DNA of 11,306 nucleotides from a virus. The stretch is from UHGV virus genome UHGV-1326493, one strand, 5' to 3'. This document shows, in pieces, positions 791-10,942 of this stretch. Numbering within the stretch: position 1 is the stretch's first letter; every line of letters begins with the position of its first letter. Both the position numbers and the translations under genes were made by a program. Below the pieces are notes generated by a model. The model saw only the letters and a list, made by a program, of their open reading frames with translations, was not told the DNA's origin and did no database searches.

Positions 791-814
791 ACCCACCATC
801 AGGTGGGTTTTTTG
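791..814 (+). terminator. intrinsic terminator for the rightward two-gene unit
   Basis: ACCCACC (791-797) / loop ATCA / GGTGGGT (802-808) followed by a T-run through 813, directly after the stop at 784-786. The hairpin also encodes the last codons of mnt (KKPT) on the other strand. Confidence 0.6.
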
Positions 815-1050
815 TACAAATCCTTCAGCGTATCAAACACCATCTTCTTAACAAGTTCGGACTGCTCATCAGCGATGCGTTCCGCATCGTCTCGATAGCC
901 TGAAATTTTGGATTGCCTTGATACAGCATCAGTCACTATCTGAACTAATTCTGAATTAATAGAGCGGCCATTGGATTTGGCTCGCTGTTTTAGTTTTTCC
1001 TTTAATTCGTAAGGTAGCCGCAGATTAAATTGCGGGTCATCTCTTCCCAT
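799..1050 (-). CDS. mnt: Mnt-type ribbon-helix-helix repressor (P22 immI family), 83 aa
   Basis: MGRDDPQFNLRLPYELKEKLKQRAKSNGRSINSELVQIV...GYRDDAERIADEQSELVKKMVFDTLKDLYKKPT matches P22 Mnt as I recall it (ARDDPHFNFRMPMEVREKLKFRAEANGRSMNSELLQIV...DAERLADEQSELVKKMVFDTLKDLYKK). ATG is plus 'cat' at 1048-1050; AAGCGAGG upstream. Confidence 0.9.
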   Translation of the reverse strand: MGRDDPQFNLRLPYELKEKLKQRAKSNGRSINSELVQIVTDAVSRQSKISGYRDDAERIADEQSELVKKMVFDTLKDLYKKPT

Positions 1051-1128: not shown

Positions 1129-1475
1129 CTTTATTTGATTAATAATGCATCACTGCGGCCACGCTGCAGCGATTCCTTGTATCTGGAGCAAATTAAATGA
1201 CAGATATTATAAATAGGAATTGTTATTTAATAATATTTGAAAATGAAAATCATGGACGATAGGAATAAAAGTAGTACTTGTTATTTTTAAGTGACGCATT
1301 AAACGCATAAAGCATATGTCTGTTGATCAAGATTCTTGCTTGTTGTAAAATAATTGTTTTGTTCATGTTGCATAGTTTTAAAGTGAATAGAAGATTATTT
1401 TTCAAAACAATTGCATCTTTGTCTGCAGTCATTCCGTTTTCTTCAATATCTAAATTTTCAAACAGGATGACTAAT

Positions 1476-4208
1476 ATGCCTGATATAACTCCAAATGTTG
1501 TAATTGGGATGCCTTCTCAACTCTTCACTATGGCTCGTTCTTTTAAAGCCGTAGCTAATGGCAAAATTTATATCGGTAAAATTGACACTGACCCTGTAAA
1601 TCCTGAAAACCAGATTCAGGTTTATGTAGAGAATGAAGATGGTTCTCACGTTCCTGTTTCGCAACCAATCGTTATCAATGCTGCTGGATATCCTGTATAT
1701 AACGGACAGATTGCTAAATTCGTTACTGTGAAAGGACACTCTATGGCTGTGTACGATGCTTATGGTACGCAGCAGTTCTATTTTCCGAATGTGCTGAAGT
1801 ATGACCCGGATCAGTTACGGCAGCAATTAGAAGATCCTGATGGTGCTAAAAAATACCCTGAATTACAGATTGCACGATGGCGGGATGATAAAGACGTTCG
1901 CGGGTGGGGGGCGGATGACTCTGGGAATAGAGATTCAACACAGGCTTTTCTTGACGCCGCATCTAGCGCAGGAAATAGTGGTTTGGTTCATGTGCCTTCT
2001 GGTGAGTTTATAGTTGATGCATCGAAAATAGATATTTCACGCTTCTCCGGTGATGGTGTTCTAATCAGTAATGGTGTTCGCATTTCTGTTAATCCGCCGA
2101 TGCAAAGTTTCTCCATTGGACAAAGAAAACTTGCGACCCTGAATTTTGGTGATGATATCAATGCGCCAACTATATATGCGAATGCACAAAATGCATTGCA
2201 GGGAATAGCTTGTGTAAGGCATGAAGGTATTGAGAAGGTTTTTATCACTCAACAGGTTGGAGGTTCTAACTGGGGAACGGACACCCTCACAAGGATCAGT
2301 GAGTGGCACTATACAAGCGATGGTTCGACCCTTTCTGTTGTGACATTTACAGAGCCATTGCCTCTTGGTCACGGTTCAGATCTTTCTGCCACAATAGAGA
2401 ACGGTGAACTATATCTGTTTACAACAACAATTGCTGAGACTGGTTCCTCTCTAGGAGGGAAGGGGTATTCAAAGACAAAATGGAAAGGGGCATCAACATC
2501 TGCTGAAGATATAACTCATTACCGAGTATTTGGTGAGCCGGGTGATAATAATCTGATTAACCTTGCGCAGCGGGCAAGTATTTGTGTATCTAATGATGGG
2601 CGATATGTCATATTAATTGCGACATCAAACGCTGGGACTGGCCGCTTTTTATACGTATATGATCGCAAAGAAGTGGAATCTTCTTCTAACCCAATGAAAG
2701 TTAGACCGATTAATGGTCCTGTTCCACTTGTCCGTGGTAAAGGTCAGTATGGTGCAACGCTTCAGGGTATTACATCAGATAGCAGATATATTTACACAAT
2801 TTGGGGTGGCGTTCCTGCAAGATGCGTAAGGACAGTCCAGATTTATGATATGGGTGGTACGCTAATACGTTCGTTTCCTGTATCACTTGCCGCATCACTT
2901 TATACAGAGACTCAGTTAAATGGTTCTGACTCTAAAATCGGAGTTCCGGTTAGCTTTGAGCCTGAAGGGCTGGCAATAAGAGGTGATGAACTTGTCTGTG
3001 GTGCTATGGATGTATGGAAAAGCGCAGGGGATGTTGTAAGCCATCGTGGTAAAAATTGGGTAAGTACTGTTACTGGTGATAACAAGGGAAATCTTCCGAC
3101 AAACAGGTCTTATTGGTTAAAAACATCGCTTGCAGCGACAAATGGTGAATGGGATTCAGGTGCAACATATAAATCAGGCGATTATACTCGCAGAAATAAG
3201 CATCTGTTTGGAGTAGCAAACCTGTCTGATATTCTTGGCAACCATCCAGTGCATGGCGCAGAATCCGATCCGTATACCGGAACCGCGTATCAATATTATG
3301 CTGGAACTGATATCGCCTTTAACCGTGAGCACGGTTCATTTACTATTGCGATATTTGACGAAGCCATTGGAGAGTATACCAAATCCCTCGAGTTGAATTA
3401 TGGAAATAACCTTAACCTGTTTGATACAGATTACGGCCATGACAATAATTCATGGGTAAGTACGAAAGCAGTATTCGACTCAAACTTTCGAGGTATGCAG
3501 TTCCGTTCTAAAGATGGCAATACTGCGGGTGGTGCTTATATTGATATCCATGCTGCTGATTGTCCATCTGCGGCTGGTGAGTTGATACTTGCCTCTACAG
3601 ATGGAGGTGTCGTCAGACTTAAGCAGGGGAATGTAACAGTATTTTCTGCGACTAAAGATACTACATCGACATGGGCGACGACGACATTAAGGCCAACAAC
3701 TGATAACCAGGTATCACTTGGAAGGTCCGTTAACCGCTTTTCTCAGGTCTACGCAGGGACTGCAACTATAAATACATCTGATGCAACAGAGAAAACGGAA
3801 GTCAGAACTCTTTCCGATAAAGAGCAGGCGGTTGGGTTAGCTCTTGTTGATGAAATTGGTTTTTATCAATGGCTTGATAGTGTAAAAAATAAGGGAGCTG
3901 ATGCCAGACTTCATGCCGGACTTACGGTGCAACGGGCAATGGAAATATTCAGAGAGAATGGACTTGATCCATTTAAATACGGAGCGATCTGCTATGACAG
4001 ATGGGATGCATATACAGATACAGATCCTGCTGTTTATGATGATGAAGGTAACCTTGTTCGTGAGGCTATAACTATTACGCATGAAGCAGGAGAACGCTAT
4101 GCATTCAGAAACGATGAATTACAGTATCTAATGATTGCTGCATTAGGTATACGTCAGAAAAATATTATAAAGAGGATTGAAGAACTGGAAAATAAGTTAA
4201 AAAATTAA
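1476..4208 (+). CDS. tailspike protein: P22-type head-binding N-terminal domain, distinct receptor-binding body, C-terminal intramolecular-chaperone-like domain
   Basis: N-terminus [59 protein letters not shown]...[10 protein letters not shown]...NVLKYDPDQ parallels P22 gp9 (MTDITANVVV...[38 protein letters not shown]...). Start chosen at ATG 1476, with AGGA 8 nt upstream and alignment to gp9 Met1; ATG 1467 is an alternative. The track start at 1323 is a coincidental in-frame extension through AT-rich leader. Stop TAA 4206-4208. Confidence 0.9.
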
Positions 4209-4299: not shown

Positions 4300-4605
4300 A
4301 TGCATAGTGGTATTTCTATGGACATTACACCAGTTCTTCACGCTCTTTATGCTATAGCTGCACAGACACTGTGTGGCATACTTACCGGGAACTGGGCTTA
4401 CGGGGCGATAGCCGGTTGTGCGTTCTTCATTGCTCGTGAACATACCCAGGCAGAATATCGCTGGATTGAAATGTTCGGGCATGGCAAGCGTATGAATATG
4501 CCGTGGTGGGGAGGGTTTGATCCACGCGTGTGGGATGTGGGAAGTCTGTTGGATTTTTCTTTCCCAATTATCGGATGCTTATTGGTATGGATTCTTGCAT
4601 CGTAG
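4300..4605 (+). CDS. hypothetical small membrane protein (about 95-101 aa, 2-3 predicted hydrophobic helices)
   Basis: ORF reads ...MDITPVLHALYAIAAQTLCGILTGNWAYGAIAGCAFFIAREHTQAEYRWIEMFGHGKRMNMPWWGGFDPRVWDVGSLLDFSFPIIGCLLVWILAS, with hydrophobic stretches at both ends. No convincing SD for ATG 4300 or ATG 4318. A TATAAT hexamer lies at 4245-4250. Sits between the tailspike and sib/attP. Confidence 0.45.
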   Translation: MHSGISMDITPVLHALYAIAAQTLCGILTGNWAYGAIAGCAFFIAREHTQAEYRWIEMFGHGKRMNMPWWGGFDPRVWDVGSLLDFSFPIIGCLLVWILAS

Positions 4606-4750: not shown

Positions 4751-4992
4751 CTGTTACAGGTCACTAATACCATCTAAGTAGTTGATTCATAGTGACTGCA
4801 CATGCTGTGTTTTGCAGTATTATGTAGTCTATTATTTAGACCAAAACCATCATAACACATTGATATTGATGATTTTTCTTGTTTCTCATTCAGCTTTTTT
4901 ATACTAAGTTGGCCTTATAAAAAAGCATTGCTTATCAATTTGTTGCAACGAACAGGTCACTATCAGTCAAAATAAAATCATTATTTGATTTC
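4751..4992. other. attP: complete lambda-type attP (P arm, 15-bp core, P' arm)
   Basis: Core GCTTTTTTATACTAA at 4893-4907 flanked by CA...GTTGG as in lambda attP. Arm-type Int sites are present: P arm CTGTTACAGGTCACTAATAC and TTCATAGTGACTGCA (4751-4800), P' arm ACAGGTCACTATCAGTCAAAATAAAATCATTAT (4952-4984). The P' arm overlaps the 3' end of int, as in lambda. Confidence 0.85.
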
Positions 4993-6051
4993 AATTTTGT
5001 CCCACTCCCTGCCTCTGTCATCACGATACTGTGATGCCATGGTGTCCGACTTATGCCCGAGAAGATGTTGAGCAAATTTATCGCTTATCTGCTTCTCATA
5101 GAGTCTTGCAGACAAACTGCGCAACTCGTGAAAGGTTGGCGGATCCCCTTCGAAGGAAAGACCTGATGCTTTTCGTGCGCGCATAAAATACCTTGATACT
5201 GTGCCGGATGAAAGCGGTTCACGACGAGTAGATGCAATTATGGTTTCTCCGCCAAGAATCTCTTTGCATTTACCAAGTGTTTCCTTCATTGATATCCCGA
5301 GAGCATCAACATGCAATGTTGTAGGGATGGCAATTTTTACGCCTGTTTTGCTTTGCTCGACATAAAGATATCCATCTACGATATCAGACCACTTCATTTC
5401 GCATAAATCACCAACTCTCTGCCCGGTAACAACAGCCAGTTCCATTGCAAGTCTGAGCCAACATGGTGATGATTCTGCTGCTTGATAAATTTTCAGGTAT
5501 TCGTCAGCCGTAAGTCTTGATCTCCTTACCTCTGATTTTGCTGCGCGAGTGGCAGCGACCGGGTTTGTTGTTATATGGCCTTCAGCTATTGCCTCTCGGA
5601 ATGCATCGCTCAGTGTTGATCTGATTAACTTGGCTGACGCCGCCTTGCCCTCGTCTATGTATCCATTGAGCATTGCTGCAATTTCTTTTGTGGTGATGTC
5701 TTCAAGTGGAGCATCAGGCAGACCCCTCCTTATTGCTTTAATTTTGCTCATGTAATTTATGAGTGTCTTCTGCTTGATTCCTCTGTTGGCGAGGATTTTT
5801 TCGTAGCGATCAAGCCATGAATGTAACGTAACAGAATTATCACTGTTGATTCTCGCTGTCAGAGGCTTGTGTTTGTGTCCTGAAAATAACTCAATGTTGG
5901 CCTGTATAGCTTCAGTGATTGCTATCCTCCTGTCTCGGCCTAATCCAAACTCTTTACCCGTCCTTGGGTCCCTGTAGCAGTAATATCCATTGTTTCTTAT
6001 ATAAAGATTAGGGGGTAAATCCCGGTGCTCATGACTTCGCCTTCTTCCCAT
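4981..6051 (-). CDS. int: tyrosine integrase, lambda Int type, 356 aa
   Basis: MGRRRSHEHRDLPPNLYIRNNGYYCYRDPRTGKEFGLGRDRRIAITEAIQANIELF...HELRSLSARLYEKQISDKFAQHLLGHKSDTMASQYRDDRGREWDKIEIK is near-identical to lambda Int as I recall it. R-x-x-R, H-x-x-R, H and the Y in ...MASQYRDD are intact. Overlaps xis by 23 nt. Confidence 0.97.
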   Translation of the reverse strand: MGRRRSHEHRDLPPNLYIRNNGYYCYRDPRTGKEFGLGRDRRIAITEAIQANIELFSGHKHKPLTARINSDNSVTLHSWLDRYEKILANRGIKQKTLINYMSKIKAIRRGLPDAPLEDITTKEIAAMLNGYIDEGKAASAKLIRSTLSDAFREAIAEGHITTNPVAATRAAKSEVRRSRLTADEYLKIYQAAESSPCWLRLAMELAVVTGQRVGDLCEMKWSDIVDGYLYVEQSKTGVKIAIPTTLHVDALGISMKETLGKCKEILGGETIIASTRREPLSSGTVSRYFMRARKASGLSFEGDPPTFHELRSLSARLYEKQISDKFAQHLLGHKSDTMASQYRDDRGREWDKIEIK

Positions 6052-6247
6052 TTTTGATCCTCTTCAAAAGGCTACCTGTTACTGGTCGATTTAAGTCAAC
6101 CTTTACCGCTGATTCGTGGAACAGATACTCTCTTCCATCCTTAACCGGAGGAGGGAATATCCTGCACTCGCGTACCCATCGACGAACTGTTTCAAGGCTT
6201 CTTGGGCGTCGCTGGCGTGCGTTCCACTCCTGAAGTGTCAAGTACAT
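6029..6247 (-). CDS. xis: excisionase, lambda Xis type, 72 aa
   Basis: MYLTLQEWNARQRRPRSLETVRRWVRECRIFPPPVKDGREYLFHESAVKVDLNRP...KKAKS matches lambda Xis. Has the characteristic overlap with the int start. Confidence 0.95.
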   Translation of the reverse strand: MYLTLQEWNARQRRPRSLETVRRWVRECRIFPPPVKDGREYLFHESAVKVDLNRPVTGSLLKRIKNGKKAKS

Positions 6248-6454: not shown

Positions 6455-6526
6455 TTATCATCTCCATAAAACAAAACTCGCCGTAGCGAGTTCAGATAAA
6501 AGAAATCCCCGCGAGTGCGAGGATTG

Positions 6527-6811
6527 TTATTCATTGTCGATATTTACCTTTATCGCGAACACCTTTACCGGTTTATCGCTAAAGTGAGGATGTGTGATTG
6601 TCTTGATTTCATATCCGCCATACGGGACGTCTATTTTGCGACTGGAATCGTCGCGCTTCGGATATCCCCTTGTGATAATCAGGCGGTCATACTCCCGGAA
6701 CATAATTCGCTTATTCCAGTAGTTATTACACAGGCGATACTCTTCCGTTTTCTCGCCTGACTTCATCTGGTCGAAATATTCACCGTTAACTGCCAGTTGA
6801 AGGTTAGCCAC
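6527..6811 (-). CDS. hypothetical protein, possible ASCH/PUA-like beta-barrel (about 94 aa)
   Basis: GTG start (plus 6809-6811) with GGAGG 6 nt upstream; it overlaps the upstream stop as GTGGCTAA. Product ...AVNGEYFDQMKSGEKTEEYRLCNNYWNKRIMFREYDRLIITRGYPKRDD... resembles the EYF..v.sG.KT.E.R opening of ASCH-type domains (weak, from memory). The track's longer form 6527..6883 adds a hydrophobic leader overlapping the upstream gene in another frame. Confidence 0.5.
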   Translation of the reverse strand: MANLQLAVNGEYFDQMKSGEKTEEYRLCNNYWNKRIMFREYDRLIITRGYPKRDDSSRKIDVPYGGYEIKTITHPHFSDKPVKVFAIKVNIDNE

Positions 6812-7094
6812 GGTTAACCTCCAGTTGTGGTGCTGCCTCAAGAGCAGCCCTGTAACCAGCAGCATGACCGCGAAAGTTAGCAATTTCTGATAGCCACGCT
6901 TTAATCATGTCCTGAGTTGGTTCCTTCGGCACCATAACCCAACCATCCGGAGTTACCGGAGAGTTGCCAGCCTTGCGCATGGCAATCTCCACGATTTCAA
7001 CCATATCTCCTGGCGGAATTTTGCAATGCTGACCAAAGCGCCTCTGCTGTCTGGCATATTCGAGGATGTGCTCCAGCTTGGTACGATTAATCAT
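6804..7094 (-). CDS. hypothetical protein, 96 aa
   Basis: ATG at 7094 with AAGGGAGA upstream; ATGA start/stop overlap with the upstream gene. No recognisable domain. Confidence 0.6.
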   Translation of the reverse strand: MINRTKLEHILEYARQQRRFGQHCKIPPGDMVEIVEIAMRKAGNSPVTPDGWVMVPKEPTQDMIKAWLSEIANFRGHAAGYRAALEAAPQLEVNRG

Positions 7095-7474
7095 GATTTA
7101 TCTCCCTTAAGCATGGCGGCGCGGCAGGAGTTCCAGCCTCTCACCTCTGCAATAGCGGCAACAGCATCGACCGCGTACATTTTAAGAGGGTTAGGCATTG
7201 GTTTTTCTTCAGGTACTACTGGCACTGGAGGGGCGGCATAAACAGGAATAACGTCCGATTGATCTTTATTGCTTTCATCCGTTAAAGCCCAGAATAATTT
7301 CCCGGCCGGATGTTTGAAAATATAAGCAACTGGTTCTGCTTCCAGCGATGCCTGTGCGATACGAAACACATTGGCAAGCAGGCTGTCTGTAGATTGGTTA
7401 TCGTGCGCCGGGTCGCTCAGGAAACCAGTGATGAATGATTTAATTTCCGCGTTTTCTCTGGTAATAGTGGTCAT
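7091..7474 (-). CDS. hypothetical protein, 127 aa
   Basis: ATG at 7474 with AAGGA upstream; ATGA overlap with the upstream gene. No recognisable domain. Confidence 0.6.
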   Translation of the reverse strand: MTTITRENAEIKSFITGFLSDPAHDNQSTDSLLANVFRIAQASLEAEPVAYIFKHPAGKLFWALTDESNKDQSDVIPVYAAPPVPVVPEEKPMPNPLKMYAVDAVAAIAEVRGWNSCRAAMLKGDKS

Positions 7475-7680
7475 TTGTTAATCCTTAAAACTTTATGCCC
7501 TGGCGCAAAAGCACGTGTTTTGTCTTTGCTTATTCGCCAGCCATCCTTACGTGCCTCTTTTGCACAGCCAGCCCATGACGTACCGATATACTCACCGAAG
7601 TCTGGCGTTTGATATTTACCATTTGTACACTGGCGACAATCACAGTAGAGATGCATGGTGTAACTTGCGGCAATAGCCAT
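7471..7680 (-). CDS. small Cys-rich protein, putative zinc-ribbon (69 aa)
   Basis: Start chosen at the internal ATG (plus 7678-7680) because AAGGAGA lies 7 nt upstream; the track's longer form 7471..7788 has no such signal. Product MAIAASYTMHLYCDCRQCTNGKYQTPDFGEYIGTSWAGCAKEARKDGWR... has a C-x-C-x2-C ... C arrangement. Confidence 0.55.
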   Translation of the reverse strand: MAIAASYTMHLYCDCRQCTNGKYQTPDFGEYIGTSWAGCAKEARKDGWRISKDKTRAFAPGHKVLRINK

Positions 7681-7681
7681 A

Positions 7682-7873
7682 TCAGTCTCCTTTAGTGCGC
7701 AAGTGGTTTTTCCAGCGGTTTTGCGCCGCGCTGCCCTTATCTCGGACTCCCTCTCTGGCAATTCCAGAAAATGAAAACAACACCACACGACGATTGCTAA
7801 CTCTCAACCACTGGCTGGGATAGCAAAGTCTGTATACACGGGAGATAAGCATCTTAGCTTTACGGTTTTTCAT
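7682..7873 (-). CDS. small basic protein, 63 aa; paralogue of the adjacent 58-aa gene
   Basis: Starts MKNRKAK; ATGA overlap with the upstream paralogue. Its 5' end carries the 18-nt repeat GATGAAAAACCGTAAAGC (plus 7857-7874). Confidence 0.5.
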   Translation of the reverse strand: MKNRKAKMLISRVYRLCYPSQWLRVSNRRVVLFSFSGIAREGVRDKGSAAQNRWKNHLRTKGD

Positions 7874-8046
7874 CTTACTGCGTACCCTTTCTTCCGCCTG
7901 TTCTGTGACGCGCTAGGCTTACGCTTTGCGGCAAAAGCCACCTGACCAAATGGATGGAGTACCGCTATCTTATGGTTGCTGATAACCAGCTCCACCACAC
8001 GCACAGGTCGCTGTAAAAAAAGTCGTTTTGCTTTACGGTTTTTCAT
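7870..8046 (-). CDS. small basic protein, 58 aa; paralogue of the adjacent 63-aa gene
   Basis: Internal ATG (plus 8044-8046) preceded by AGGAGAG at 7-nt spacing; starts MKNRKAKRLFLQRPVRVV... The same 18-nt repeat lies at plus 8030-8047. The track's longer form 7870..8088 is unsupported. Confidence 0.5.
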   Translation of the reverse strand: MKNRKAKRLFLQRPVRVVELVISNHKIAVLHPFGQVAFAAKRKPSASQNRRKKGYAVR

Positions 8047-8896
8047 CGTTTTGCTCTCCTGCGTCTCCTTTGATGCGAATGCCAGCAAGCCAGTTTCTTA
8101 TGCCGATATATTCAGCGTTCCTGAAACCGCTTTTTACATATATAAATGGCAAGCGAAGATTGTGACCATTGGCTGCCAGGTAGTCTTTACAACCCTGTTC
8201 GGTGAAACAGCAGGTAACGAATTCATCAATATCTTTCACAGCAACGCGCCGCCATTTTTCTGGTGGCTCTCGAAAGTTTTCATGAAGTAGTTCGAGACGA
8301 CGACTTTGGCGTTTATTGGCTTCATTGCCATCTTCATCAACCCAGACAATCCGGTCATAGTCATAATCAGCATCAACAACAATTTCGCGCTTTTGATACA
8401 CACAAAACATAGGGTCTGACGTTATTCGATTATCCTGTGTTCGAATATTTTCACCGATGATGCCAAACGAATCTGGTGCAGATTTTGTCTGCAACTCTGC
8501 TATGCGCTTACTTCCATCCGAGATAACACCTTCGTAATACTCGCGCTGCTCGTTGAGTTTTGATTTTGTCTCCTCAAGCTCAACACGCAGCTTCCCTACC
8601 GTTAGCGCAATATCCTCGTTCTCCTGGTCACGGCGTTTTATGTATTGCTGGTTTCTTTCCCGTTCATCCAGCAGCGCCTGCACTACTTCAGGGTTGAAAG
8701 CTGCGATATAACGCGCGTTATTCTCTGCGTTTTCCTGTCCATCAAAGCCGGTCCATTTGATAACGTCTTCACATCGTTTATCACCTGGTGTATGCACCGC
8801 ATATGTACCAGTACCCGACGAAATAAATGCGACCCATTCGCCTTGTGTTGCCTGTTTTGCTATCTCACGCAGTGCCTGGTAATTAATTTCGCTCAC
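8033..8896 (-). CDS. Ea22-like early protein, 287 aa
   Basis: GTG start with GGAGG 6 nt upstream. MSEINYQALRE... and ...LDERERNQQYIKRRDQENEDIALTVGKLRVELEETKSKLNEQREYYEGVISDGSKRIAEL... and the ending GIRIKGD... match what I recall of lambda Ea22; the middle and C-terminal half differ. Confidence 0.7.
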   Translation of the reverse strand: MSEINYQALREIAKQATQGEWVAFISSGTGTYAVHTPGDKRCEDVIKWTGFDGQENAENNARYIAAFNPEVVQALLDERERNQQYIKRRDQENEDIALTVGKLRVELEETKSKLNEQREYYEGVISDGSKRIAELQTKSAPDSFGIIGENIRTQDNRITSDPMFCVYQKREIVVDADYDYDRIVWVDEDGNEANKRQSRRLELLHENFREPPEKWRRVAVKDIDEFVTCCFTEQGCKDYLAANGHNLRLPFIYVKSGFRNAEYIGIRNWLAGIRIKGDAGEQNDEKP

Positions 8897-9200
8897 TGGC
8901 TGCCTCCTTTGCTGGGCTTTCTAACTTCTGAGTGGTTGTATCAAACTCAAACAACTTAACCACGTCATCAAACAGGACATAATCGCCATCAGAATCTTCA
9001 GTCATGTCAGCGCCACAATCCTGACCGAACGAGTCACAACCATCCATATCAAGTTCGTATCGCTTGAGTTTTGCGATATTTGATAAATTCAGCGCCAGTA
9101 CAGCAAGGTCATAAACCTCATCAGCGGTATACCCGGCACCATGCCCATACATTTCAATGCGGGATATGATTTCTTCTACCCGTTGTTTTGTGATTGTCAT
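8883..9200 (-). CDS. hypothetical acidic protein, 105 aa
   Basis: ATG at 9200 in ATGA overlap with the upstream gene; its 3' end overlaps the Ea22-like start by 14 nt. Confidence 0.55.
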   Translation of the reverse strand: MTITKQRVEEIISRIEMYGHGAGYTADEVYDLAVLALNLSNIAKLKRYELDMDGCDSFGQDCGADMTEDSDGDYVLFDDVVKLFEFDTTTQKLESPAKEAASERN

Positions 9201-9658
9201 TTTTGCTCACCACTCTGTTCTTCCAGAAAAATACGCATAGCCTCAAGCATCTCTTCGGTGTCATACGGAGACAGCTTGTCACGCAGGATGTGTTCAATGC
9301 TGTTAATGAACTTGCGGATTGCTTTGCGTTCAATTTCAGCCAGGAAAGCATCGGTGGCTGGGGTTTCAGTAACATCATCTTCCCATTCGCTAAACTCCTC
9401 ACGACAAAAGTCATTAAATTCCTTCTCAGATTGCTTAAGCGAGGTATTTTCAGCAGCCATCTTCGCGCATTTAGCCTCAAGGTTATCAATCGTGATTCCA
9501 GCAGAACTACACTCCCGCAACGCCGTTTCCAGTTTTGATTCAAGTTCACCGAACTTACGGACAAGATATTCAGCGTTTGTTTCGTTAACCTTTAAATCTC
9601 GTGGGATGCATTTGCCTTTCAGAAAACCATCCATCTCAATTAGTGACATTTGTTTCAT
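9197..9658 (-). CDS. hypothetical acidic protein, 153 aa
   Basis: Start placed at ATG plus 9656-9658, which forms an ATGA overlap with the stop of the 54-aa ORF upstream. The track's GTG start at 9676 has no SD. Confidence 0.55.
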
Positions 9659-9819
9659 TTCTTCCCACTCCGCCACATCGCATTCAGATATTTGTTTTGA
9701 TTTACTGATGGAAAAGAATTTCTCTTAAGCAATTCCTCTCTCGATGGCATTGGCTTTACGCGTTGGCGAATAATCATTTCTGCCGGAAGAATGCCGGGAT
9801 TGTATGCAAGTCCTCTCAT
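9655..9819 (-). CDS. hypothetical protein, 54 aa (not in the track; below its length cutoff)
   Basis: ATG at plus 9817-9819 overlaps the stop of the upstream gene (ATGA); GGAGAG 5 nt upstream; its own stop overlaps the next start (ATGA). Translation [54 protein letters not shown]. Confidence 0.45.
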
Positions 9820-10106
9820 GATTTACTCTCCACTAACTGGTCAATAGCCATGCTAAGTGACATACCTAAAGTCTCGATATGCTGCTGAATATCCTGTAGC
9901 GTCTGCGCCTGAGATAACAGGATTTCACGGTTGCATAACTCTTTAACCAGATGCTCAAACTTGCTGTAATAACCGATACGGCTTAGTGTTTCTTTCCCTG
10001 CATTCTCGCCTTCTTTGATAATTCCTCTTTCACTAAGAATCAGGTCGTGTTTGGTTCCGGTAATAACGTATTTTCCGAGGTCGATGTTTAGCTTCATTGT
10101 TTTCAT
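9816..10106 (-). CDS. hypothetical protein, 96 aa
   Basis: Start chosen at ATG plus 10104-10106 ([17 protein letters not shown]...) with GAGGAA 6 nt upstream. The track's longer form to 10289 would overlap the upstream gene by about 170 nt. Confidence 0.5.
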
Positions 10107-10116
10107 TGTTAATTCC

Positions 10117-10413
10117 TCAGTCATTACTGATAGCGCCATAGCGTGAGCGGTAATTACGCAGGCGCGGGTCGATATATTCAGGGAAGTGGGTATATGTGGC
10201 TTTGCGGAATGGTCGGATTGATGTCTGGTAAATCCGCTCGCGCTCTTCTTTCTCTGCAAGCCATATACAGTGGCGAAATTCCTTTTCATCTTTCGTTTCC
10301 TGCGGTAGAGACATTATCTGGTCGTAGTTTTTCCTGAATTTATCCAGCACCTCCGATACGGAATTGCCGGAACAGCGGCGCGCGTCATCCGCACCATACA
10401 GAGGCGCTGGCAT
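10117..10413 (-). CDS. hypothetical protein, 98 aa
   Basis: ATG at 10413 with AGGAGA 5 nt upstream; 13 nt after the ssb stop. Confidence 0.6.
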   Translation of the reverse strand: MPAPLYGADDARRCSGNSVSEVLDKFRKNYDQIMSLPQETKDEKEFRHCIWLAEKEERERIYQTSIRPFRKATYTHFPEYIDPRLRNYRSRYGAISND

Positions 10414-10426
10414 GATTTTCTCCTGA

Positions 10427-10942
10427 TTAAATTGCGTGAATAGCGTGACGAGGGAAGGGGAGAGTTACTGGTGCAAAGGGTATATCGTCGTCAAAATCCA
10501 TAGGTGGTTCGCTGTGATTCCCCTGCTGCTGAGATTGCTGTTTTTGTTGCTTACCGTTATTTCGCTGAGGTGAAGACTGTTCATTGCCTCCTTGCTTGCC
10601 ACCAAGCATTTGCATGGTTCCACCAACTCCTACGATAACTTCGGTAGTGAACCGATCCTGTCCGCTTTGATCCTGCCATTTTCTTGTCCGCAATTTGCCT
10701 TCAAGATAAACCTCAGAGCCTTTTCGCAGATATTCGCTGGCAATTTCTGCCAGTTTCCCGCTCATTACCACGCGGTGCCACTCCGTCTGCTCCTTTTGCT
10801 CTCCAGTTTGCTTATCACGCCATTGCTCTGACGTAGCAACTGTAAGGTTTGCAAATGCCGTTCCTGATGGTGAATATCTGATTTCTGGATCATGCCCAAG
10901 GCGACCAATAATGATCACCTTATTTACGCCTCTGCTTGCCAT
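10427..10942 (-). CDS. ssb: single-stranded DNA-binding protein with a 15-residue extension beyond the canonical DDDIPF terminus
   Basis: [23 protein letters not shown]...[68 protein letters not shown]...[11 protein letters not shown] matches E. coli SSB ([23 protein letters not shown]...[52 protein letters not shown]...[11 protein letters not shown]). Here the frame continues [15 protein letters not shown] before TAA. Confidence 0.93.

Follow-up and report, generated by a model that had tools for sequence, protein, structure and literature searches.

A 69-residue prophage protein of the PHROG 926 family with a predicted four-ligand metal site and no detectable kinship to Lar

We analyzed a small gene in the early region of a prophage, using as our window the whole 11,306-nucleotide stretch of UHGV virus genome UHGV-1326493. 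Read from the minus strand, positions 7471-7680 translate to MAIAASYTMHLYCDCRQCTNGKYQTPDFGEYIGTSWAGCAKEARKDGWRISKDKTRAFAPGHKVLRINK, a protein of 69 amino acids (aa) that belongs to PHROG 926, a family already catalogued under that number with no function explained. Comparison across the family points to a structural metal site built from four ligands, one of which appears to be movable between two segments of the chain, and profile comparisons reject the kinship with Lar-type restriction-alleviation factors that the initial annotation had suggested from the cysteine pattern. The best overall explanation, to which we assign a probability of roughly 0.55, is that the gene encodes a zinc-stabilized early accessory protein that acts as an adaptor or inhibitor.

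That the gene is real and under purifying selection is close to certain. The PHROG 926 profile (function not assigned) matches the protein over its whole length (E=4.5e-37, 127 bits, residues 1-69 on profile positions 1-69 of 69), and among 27 distinct close nucleotide variants, drawn from 75 near-identical copies at IMG/VR loci, polymorphic sites fall 7/7/31 on the three codon positions, with a ratio of nonsynonymous to synonymous polymorphism (pN/pS) of 0.115. The position of the start codon allows a different reading: the program-made list of open reading frames (ORFs) gives a 105-aa frame from a GTG at 7788 (7471-7788), and the RefSeq record of phage 933W annotates a 95-aa form of the homolog from an upstream GTG, so that the 69 residues might be the tail of a longer protein, or a chance ORF whose cysteine pattern means nothing. 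The comparisons refute this, and we leave it next to no probability: the upstream extension shares its DNA with a conserved phrog_1380 ORF in a different frame (E=3.8e-34), while the profile covers exactly residues 1-69, relatives begin at the equivalent methionine, a Shine-Dalgarno (SD) sequence lies at the ATG, and selection is purifying. Because the profile alignment starts at the internal ATG and an equivalent M-I/A start is present in 98 of the 124 relatives aligned below, this comparative evidence confirms the internal ATG as the true start. On these points the initial annotation holds: the 69-aa ORF, the early C-D-C-R-Q-C (residues 13-18), a further cysteine (C39) and the strong SD (AAGGAG, 6-nt spacer) are all present in the sequence, at the location it gave, although it had left out the strand, which is minus. 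The TGA of the upstream ORF (7682-7684) ends 1 nt before the focal ATG, and an ATGA overlap (7471-7474) joins the focal stop to the start of the downstream ORF; together with the SD, such tight junctions are the usual signs of translational coupling to both neighbors in a packed operon.

The 210-bp gene is present in 823 of 5426 complete E. coli genomes (~15%), with up to six copies per genome; records that encode the protein number 433 for phages and 253 for plasmids, the latter mainly non-mobilizable. Named carriers include phiV10 (gp52), 933W (ST933Wp08), Stx2 phage 86, and the P1-like D6 and RCS47; the phiV10 record mentions a similar protein in VT2-Sa (VT2-Sap07). In the records that we inspected, the gene is labelled 'hypothetical' or left unannotated. 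In 933W, the family start corresponds to an internal methionine and would give a protein of 71 aa in place of the annotated 95 aa; ST933Wp08 is adjoined there by a small membrane protein, ST933Wp07, with the product name 'released from the phage upon host infection' (the pair lies at 3326-3544 and 3546-3833 of the retrieved stretch). More distant homologs, at <60% identity by tblastn, are found in Ackermannviridae (Det7 gp132, LIMEstone1, PhaxI), Drexlerviridae (Rogue1 gp68), Klebsiella phages and Agrobacterium phage 7-7-1; a member of the family was also seen in an Afipia prophage. The family is hosted by temperate and virulent phages. In Ackermannviridae, the PHROG 926 gene stands directly after the genes of a bacterial-PH (bPH_2) membrane protein and a dCMP deaminase (coordinates of the region in the retrieved loci: Det7, 2090-2716; LIMEstone1, 2094-2710). 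This stretch is unannotated in LIMEstone1, and many other Ackermannviridae records have no feature beneath the tblastn match; the PHROG 926 gene is therefore often missed in annotation.

To describe the family more broadly, we searched 1.84 billion cluster representatives with the profile at a cut-off of E≤1e-3, and obtained 401 matching representatives, 56 of them at E≤1e-10; with few exceptions, they consist of a single domain and are 60-80 aa long. A word-indexed search returned close enterobacterial relatives only. One 697-aa match of the profile search, a metalloprotease with fibronectin type II repeats, was set aside as a compositional false positive. We aligned 124 diverse members, all of which match phrog_926, and number positions here by the window protein. 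The alignment shows an N-terminal motif M-I/A-x-x-x-Y-x-x-x-L-Y-C-D, a central G-x-S/T...A-R-x-x-G-W and a C-terminal P-x-H/C, with particularly strong conservation at A43 (120/124), G47 (123/124), W48 (122/124) and P60 (115/124). The window protein has Y7, L11, Y12, C13, D14, G33, A43, R44, G47, W48, P60 and H62.

The alignment also shows a pattern of potential metal ligands. All 124 sequences have C13; 105 have C18, and each of the remaining 19 has a histidine 4-10 residues past C13. Position 62 is His in 83 members and Cys in 38, or 121 of 124 in all. The third ligand is supplied from one of two places: C15 alone occurs in 69 sequences, C59 alone in 51, both in 4 and neither in none (Fisher p=1.6e-30, uncorrected for phylogeny), and on a rough neighbor-joining tree this state changes ~19 times. 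Members with cysteine rather than histidine at position 62 tend to be those with C59 (p=8e-17). Exactly four of the five scored ligand positions are occupied in 102 of the 124 sequences, and the 19 that have three carry the replacement histidine. By this comparison, the family appears always to keep four ligands, one of them movable from the first knuckle to the C-terminal segment. A set that is kept but movable fits the prediction of a structural tetrahedral metal site, and the relocation implies that residues 13-18 and 59-62 would meet in space.

The window protein is of the form that we call type A, with predicted ligands C13, C15, C18 and H62: a single knuckle, CxCxxC, gives three ligands, and of what would be the second knuckle, H62 is all that is left. 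Type-B relatives, 51 in number, have instead a two-knuckle, zinc-ribbon-like arrangement, C-x4-8-C/H ... C-P-x-C/H; a type-B query finds one locus in genome contigs (the Afipia prophage) and four in viral contigs. Thus the four ligands that a zinc ribbon calls for can be assigned across the family, as C13, C18 or the nearby His, C15 or C59, and H/C62. We consider a structural metal site at C13/C15/C18/H62 likely, with good confidence, and zinc is very probably its metal. The proposal of a small Cys-rich metal-binding protein in the initial annotation is therefore borne out, through a four-ligand site with compensatory swaps over 124 relatives, except in the choice of the fourth ligand. C39, which it had put forward, is Cys in only 70 of the 124 sequences (otherwise A, T or V); H62, which it did not mention, takes that place. 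C39 and C57 (64/124) are optional and mutually uncorrelated.

Could the same site hold iron? Three cysteines and a histidine (four cysteines in type B) are chemically compatible with Fe or a [2Fe-2S] cluster and could form a redox-responsive switch; mitoNEET-type proteins have a 3Cys-1His [2Fe-2S] site, and rubredoxin invites a similar comparison. There is also a positional argument. The focal gene corresponds in location to the stretch between ea22 and xis in lambdoid phages, part of their 'exo-xis region' (PMC8614690), which has been linked to H2O2-mediated prophage induction (PMC4699033). We nevertheless regard an iron or iron-sulfur site as improbable. The CDGSH and rubredoxin families show no Pfam similarity to the protein, the spacing C-x-C-x2-C...x43...H is unlike known Fe-S motifs, and His/Cys interchange with ligand relocation is typical of structural zinc sites. 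A further link, from the exo-xis deletion of phage Phi24B to oxidative stress, was dropped, there being no homolog in the first 10 kb of Phi24B.

We modeled the protein with AlphaFold2, obtaining a mean predicted confidence (predicted local distance difference test, pLDDT) of 76.5 with 13 sequences, and of 82.1 with 124 sequences (predicted template-modeling score, pTM, 0.64). Both runs agree on a strand at 7-13, a short helix at 16-19, a strand at 28-33, a helix at 36-45 (pLDDT ~92) and short strands at 48-50 and 57-58; the tail is less confident. The predicted fold is therefore a beta-beta-alpha-beta-beta mini-domain. With its 10-residue helix, this model does not match the three-stranded antiparallel sheet of the classical zinc-ribbon fold. 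The highest-ranking Foldseek rows in the PDB have protein-G-B1-like topologies at a TM score of ~0.4, and in BFVD Foldseek finds only uncharacterised small phage proteins, some from actinophages. A PDB sequence search with the single protein found nothing. The family profile gave a PDB match to a plant ZF-HD homeodomain (E=0.026), which we judged a chance likeness of the local 'A..GWRI' helix. A Pfam scan of the window protein returned nothing significant, and one of the 124 relatives returned scattered sub-threshold matches only; in these scans, the family is without a Pfam or NCBIfam model for any member.

We now turn to the kinship with Lar, which the initial annotation had offered at the level of pattern and for which it had named a profile search as the check. 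That search is negative: neither the window protein nor any of the 124 relatives matches Pfam PF14354 (Lar_restr_allev) at E≤1. Alignment of the family profile by hhalign to Lar/RalR of the Rac prophage gives a probability of 0.13%, and to a shallow 9-sequence Lar alignment (Rac Lar/RalR from the K-12 record, its relatives and two Lar-like metagenomic phage sequences) 0.5%. The Lar signature CPFCG...CxxC...EA..WNxR is missing; the window protein has C-D-C-R-Q-C ... A-R-K-D-G-W-R ... H. Membership of the Lar family, and with it homology to Lar, is therefore rejected. Comparison by hhalign with a provisional lambda Ral sequence was also negative, a weak test, and RcbA of Rac, of equal length and in a similar position after xis, looks unrelated by eye. 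In the current RefSeq record of K-12, Lar of Rac appears as 'endodeoxyribonuclease toxin RalR', with the antisense small RNA RalA (2532-2928 of the retrieved Rac stretch); the Lar family is thus annotated in two ways, as restriction alleviation and as a type I toxin.

One relative keeps the functional question alive. In P0087, a 132-aa fusion protein found on eight contigs from several samples, residues 1-69 make up a PHROG 926 domain (E=2.1e-20) and residues 67-119 a Lar-like zinc ribbon (phrog_599 E=8.4e-5), the only phrog_599 match among the 124 relatives. The gene of P0087 is surrounded by those of a T4-type polynucleotide kinase/phosphatase (Pnk), RNA ligase 1, a PIF1 helicase, a dUTPase and another ORF with a weak Lar_restr_allev match. 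On this evidence the PHROG 926 protein might be a divergent Lar homolog, or an unrelated protein that modulates type I restriction-modification or another barrier. Like Lar in Rac, it is small and rich in cysteine, and its prophage gene is an early one close to xis/int; the fusion protein lies among Pnk and RNA ligase genes of counter-defence type, and the window has the anti-RecBCD gene abc2 in the same operon. However, the profile results reject homology, the coexistence of both domains in one protein argues that they are different modules, and a fusion from a single lineage is weak guilt by association. A Lar-like role is therefore possible and, in our estimate, unlikely.

In the same low range of probability we place a more specific form of this idea, in which PHROG 926 would be an undescribed zinc-binding, beta-grasp-like beta-beta-alpha-beta-beta fold with a movable four-ligand site that binds, neutralizes or redirects a host restriction or nuclease system, Lar-like in function and unrelated to it by descent. 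Such a role would explain how the gene came to spread, as a cassette, through temperate phages, large virulent phages and phage-plasmids alike, and also its position beside anti-RecBCD and takeover genes and its fusion to a Lar-like module.

What, then, might the protein do? The charge distribution offers a clue. Averaged over the family, the net charge is -3.0 up to residue 40 and +4.7 for residues 41-66; the C-terminal part carries at least +3 in 87% of members, and basic residues are favored at positions 41, 44, 45, 49, 52, 54, 56, 63 and 66. Given this conserved charge dipole, the lack of a catalytic motif and a size below that of most enzymes, the protein would most likely act as a stoichiometric binder of nucleic acid or of a DNA-handling host protein, a tentative proposal that we hold as a whole at somewhat below even odds. 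The neighbors in various phages (Abc2 and SSB in the window; Pnk, RNA ligase and PIF1; dCMP deaminase; nucleoside deoxyribosyltransferase) are early genes of DNA and nucleotide metabolism or host takeover, and agree weakly with the binder.

A related alternative is that the protein is a small zinc-finger regulator of host or phage transcription that binds RNA polymerase or a promoter, or perhaps a modulator of translation, comparable to lambda Orf73/TraR, P2 Ogr or Mu Com. The focal gene occupies the distal, variable part of the leftward (pL-type) early operon, between Ead/Ea22 and xis/int, and products of the exo-xis region have been proposed to act on transcription or RNA polymerase (PMC8614690); deletion of the whole exo-xis region shifts the lysis-lysogeny balance (PMC10789677). 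The basic C-terminal half and one relative fused to HTH_17 (P0174) point the same way. We consider a transcription regulator unlikely all the same, since neither the window protein nor its 124 relatives match zf-dskA_traR, Ogr_Delta or other DNA-binding families of Pfam at E≤1, the HTH_17 fusion is a single 1-kb contig, and the family is also present in virulent phages, which have no lysis-lysogeny decision. Moreover, Phi24B, the phage of the exo-xis experiments, has no homolog in its first 10 kb, and the published exo-xis phenotypes are therefore not attributable to a PHROG 926 gene.

Under the preferred explanation, a zinc-stabilized adaptor or inhibitor, the sequence of events could be as follows. 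The protein would be translated from its own strong SD, coupled to both neighbors, as part of the leftward early operon. A single tetrahedral metal ion, most likely Zn2+, would be held by Cys13, Cys15, Cys18 and His62, tying the loop that follows strand 1 to the C-terminal segment. The resulting domain, with an acidic N-terminal half and a basic half made of helix, hairpin and tail, would act stoichiometrically as a binder. It may target nucleic acid or else a protein of the host that handles nucleic acid, for example RNA polymerase or a complex of nuclease or restriction type, and in this way it may influence host takeover or counter-defence at an early stage of infection or induction.

Several points weigh against this explanation. 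The case for the metal site consists of conservation, and 3 of the 124 sequences are without His or Cys at position 62; the Fisher tests ignore phylogeny, and the neighbor-joining tree was built on ~45 columns. The proposal of a binder draws on charge distribution, context and three fusions, of which those to HTH_17 and in P0120 are singletons on contigs of 1-2 kb. Foldseek found no match to either model in the PDB (best E=1.3 and 2.1), and with no PDB relative there is therefore no functional analogy to be taken from the fold. Scans of the window protein against NCBIfam and PADLOC gave nothing significant, and we found no study of the ORF in the literature by PHROG identifier, accession, motif or context.

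The coordinates of the focal gene and of its surroundings are collected in Table 1. The window is the terminal part of a P22-like prophage. Even the closest E. coli genomes cover it piecewise, with at most 38% in any one genome, and the prophage is therefore a mosaic. Its long run of minus-strand genes includes, besides those listed, a DUF551-type ORF pair and an ASCH-like ORF. The arrangement around the focal gene recurs in related loci: among 79 close loci, the PHROG 1380 family lies upstream in 51, and the DUF551-type 'MTTIT...' family downstream in 68. In Kosakonia, the homolog is likewise followed by a DUF551 gene, with a 4-nt overlap. In temperate enterobacterial phages, then, the focal gene travels with a DUF551-type gene, either in an exo-xis-like region or in the nin region.

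The tandem PHROG 1380 paralogs of the window are very basic proteins of ~60 aa (E=3.8e-34 and 5.9e-23); related loci have zero, one or two copies, and Ea22 directly adjoins the focal gene in 23 of 79. Downstream, the ORFs at 7091-7474 and 6804-7094, which overlap by 4 nt, match separate parts of the phrog_60 profile (positions 116-183 and 259-324) and correspond in position to the single 233-aa DUF551-type gene gp53 of phiV10; the pair may have arisen by the splitting of one gene, or may mark a junction of modular recombination. An Rfam scan of the window found no RNA family.

Table 1. Features of the window and of the focal gene, in order of position.
Feature	Position	Strand	Basis or remark
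ORF with SocA/Panacea antitoxin domain	36-362	plus	Pfam E=5.5e-18
Mnt/Arc repressor	799-1050		
Tailspike with P22 head-binding domain	1323-4208	plus	
Integrase	4981-6051		
Excisionase	6029-6247		
Two terminator-like hairpins after the ASCH-like gene, putatively closing the leftward early operon	6474-6525	minus	consensus scan only
Long run of minus-strand genes	6527-10942	minus	
Downstream 127-aa ORF, 'MTTIT...' module of DUF551-type proteins	7091-7474	minus	
Coding sequence of the 69-aa PHROG 926 protein	7471-7680	minus	stop codon 7471-7473, ATG 7678-7680; read from sequence
His62 codon, predicted fourth ligand, inside the conserved A-P-G-H-K motif	7495-7497	minus	
Conserved helix and turn W36-...-A43-R44-x-x-G47-W48-R49-I50-S51-K52	7525-7572	minus	start of basic half
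Cys39 codon, optional, outside the core ligand set	7564-7566	minus	
First metal knuckle C13-D-C15-R-Q-C18	7627-7644	minus	three predicted Zn ligands
Upstream 63-aa ORF, PHROG 1380 (one of two tandem paralogs)	7682-7873	minus	
Shine-Dalgarno sequence AAGGAG	7687-7692	minus	6-nt spacer to ATG; read from sequence
Second PHROG 1380 paralog	7870-8088	minus	
Ead/Ea22	8033-8896	minus	
Abc2 anti-RecBCD	10117-10413	minus	
SSB	10427-10942	minus	

Farther from the focal gene, the window holds other genes of potential interest. The SocA/Panacea ORF, whose true start may lie outside the window, is overlapped on the plus strand by a 164-aa ORF (292-786) that has no Pfam match and a weak PADLOC match to NsnC (E=6.9e-6); together, the ORFs at 36-786 look like a Panacea-type toxin-antitoxin or defence moron beside the immI (Mnt) region. 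The tailspike joins its P22-type head-binding domain (E=2e-65) to a C-terminal endosialidase-chaperone (Peptidase_S74) domain. Between tailspike and integrase, an interval that is a typical site of lysogenic-conversion or superinfection-exclusion morons, lies a 101-aa hydrophobic ORF (4300-4605, plus strand) of no Pfam family.

What appears to be new here is the definition of the four ligands and of their compensatory relocation, the wide extent of the family, its lack of a Pfam or PDB relative, and the explicit rejection of Lar homology, which removes a tempting but wrong 'Lar-like' label. The value of these results is one of annotation more than of surprise, the protein being one more uncharacterised small protein of phages. 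Nevertheless, its carriers include the Shiga-toxin phages 933W and VT2-Sakai, P1-like phage-plasmids and Vi1-like virulent phages considered for biocontrol, and the family, large, coherent and well defined, lends itself to structure determination and to screens for anti-defence or host-takeover activity.

It is instructive to compare the protein with the systems that it most resembles. Nothing sets it apart from other members of PHROG 926 (phiV10 gp52, YP_512307.1; 933W ST933Wp08, NP_049468.1; VT2-Sa p07; Det7 gp132; Rogue1 gp68; phage 7-7-1 gp35), with which it shares length, the motifs M-I-x-x-G-Y-x-x-x-L-Y-C-D, A-R-x-x-G-W and P-x-H/C, and the early-operon setting. Lar/RalR of Rac (PF14354, PHROG 599) is similarly small (64 aa), Cys-rich, early, encoded near xis/int and probably zinc-binding; unlike the window protein, with its CxCxxC...H and A-R-x-x-G-W helix, it combines two CxxC knuckles with an EA..WNxR helix at the C-terminus. 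Lambda Ea8.5, a homeodomain/zinc-finger hybrid and at that time the only exo-xis protein with a solved structure (PMC8614690), offers a parallel as a small zinc-binding accessory protein encoded between ea22 and xis in the distal leftward early operon. The two differ in that the window protein has no PDB sequence or fold match beyond the ZF-HD one at E=0.026, and in its predicted beta-beta-alpha-beta-beta fold, as against a three-helix bundle plus finger. Lambda Orf73 and TraR of the F plasmid are DksA-like C4 zinc fingers that bind RNA polymerase (PMC9239242). TraR is largely helical, its C4 finger differs from the predicted site in architecture and ligand spacing, and zf-dskA_traR does not match the window protein; yet as small zinc fingers from the same region of the lambdoid operon that act stoichiometrically on a host machine, Orf73 and TraR are plausible functional analogues of the PHROG 926 protein.

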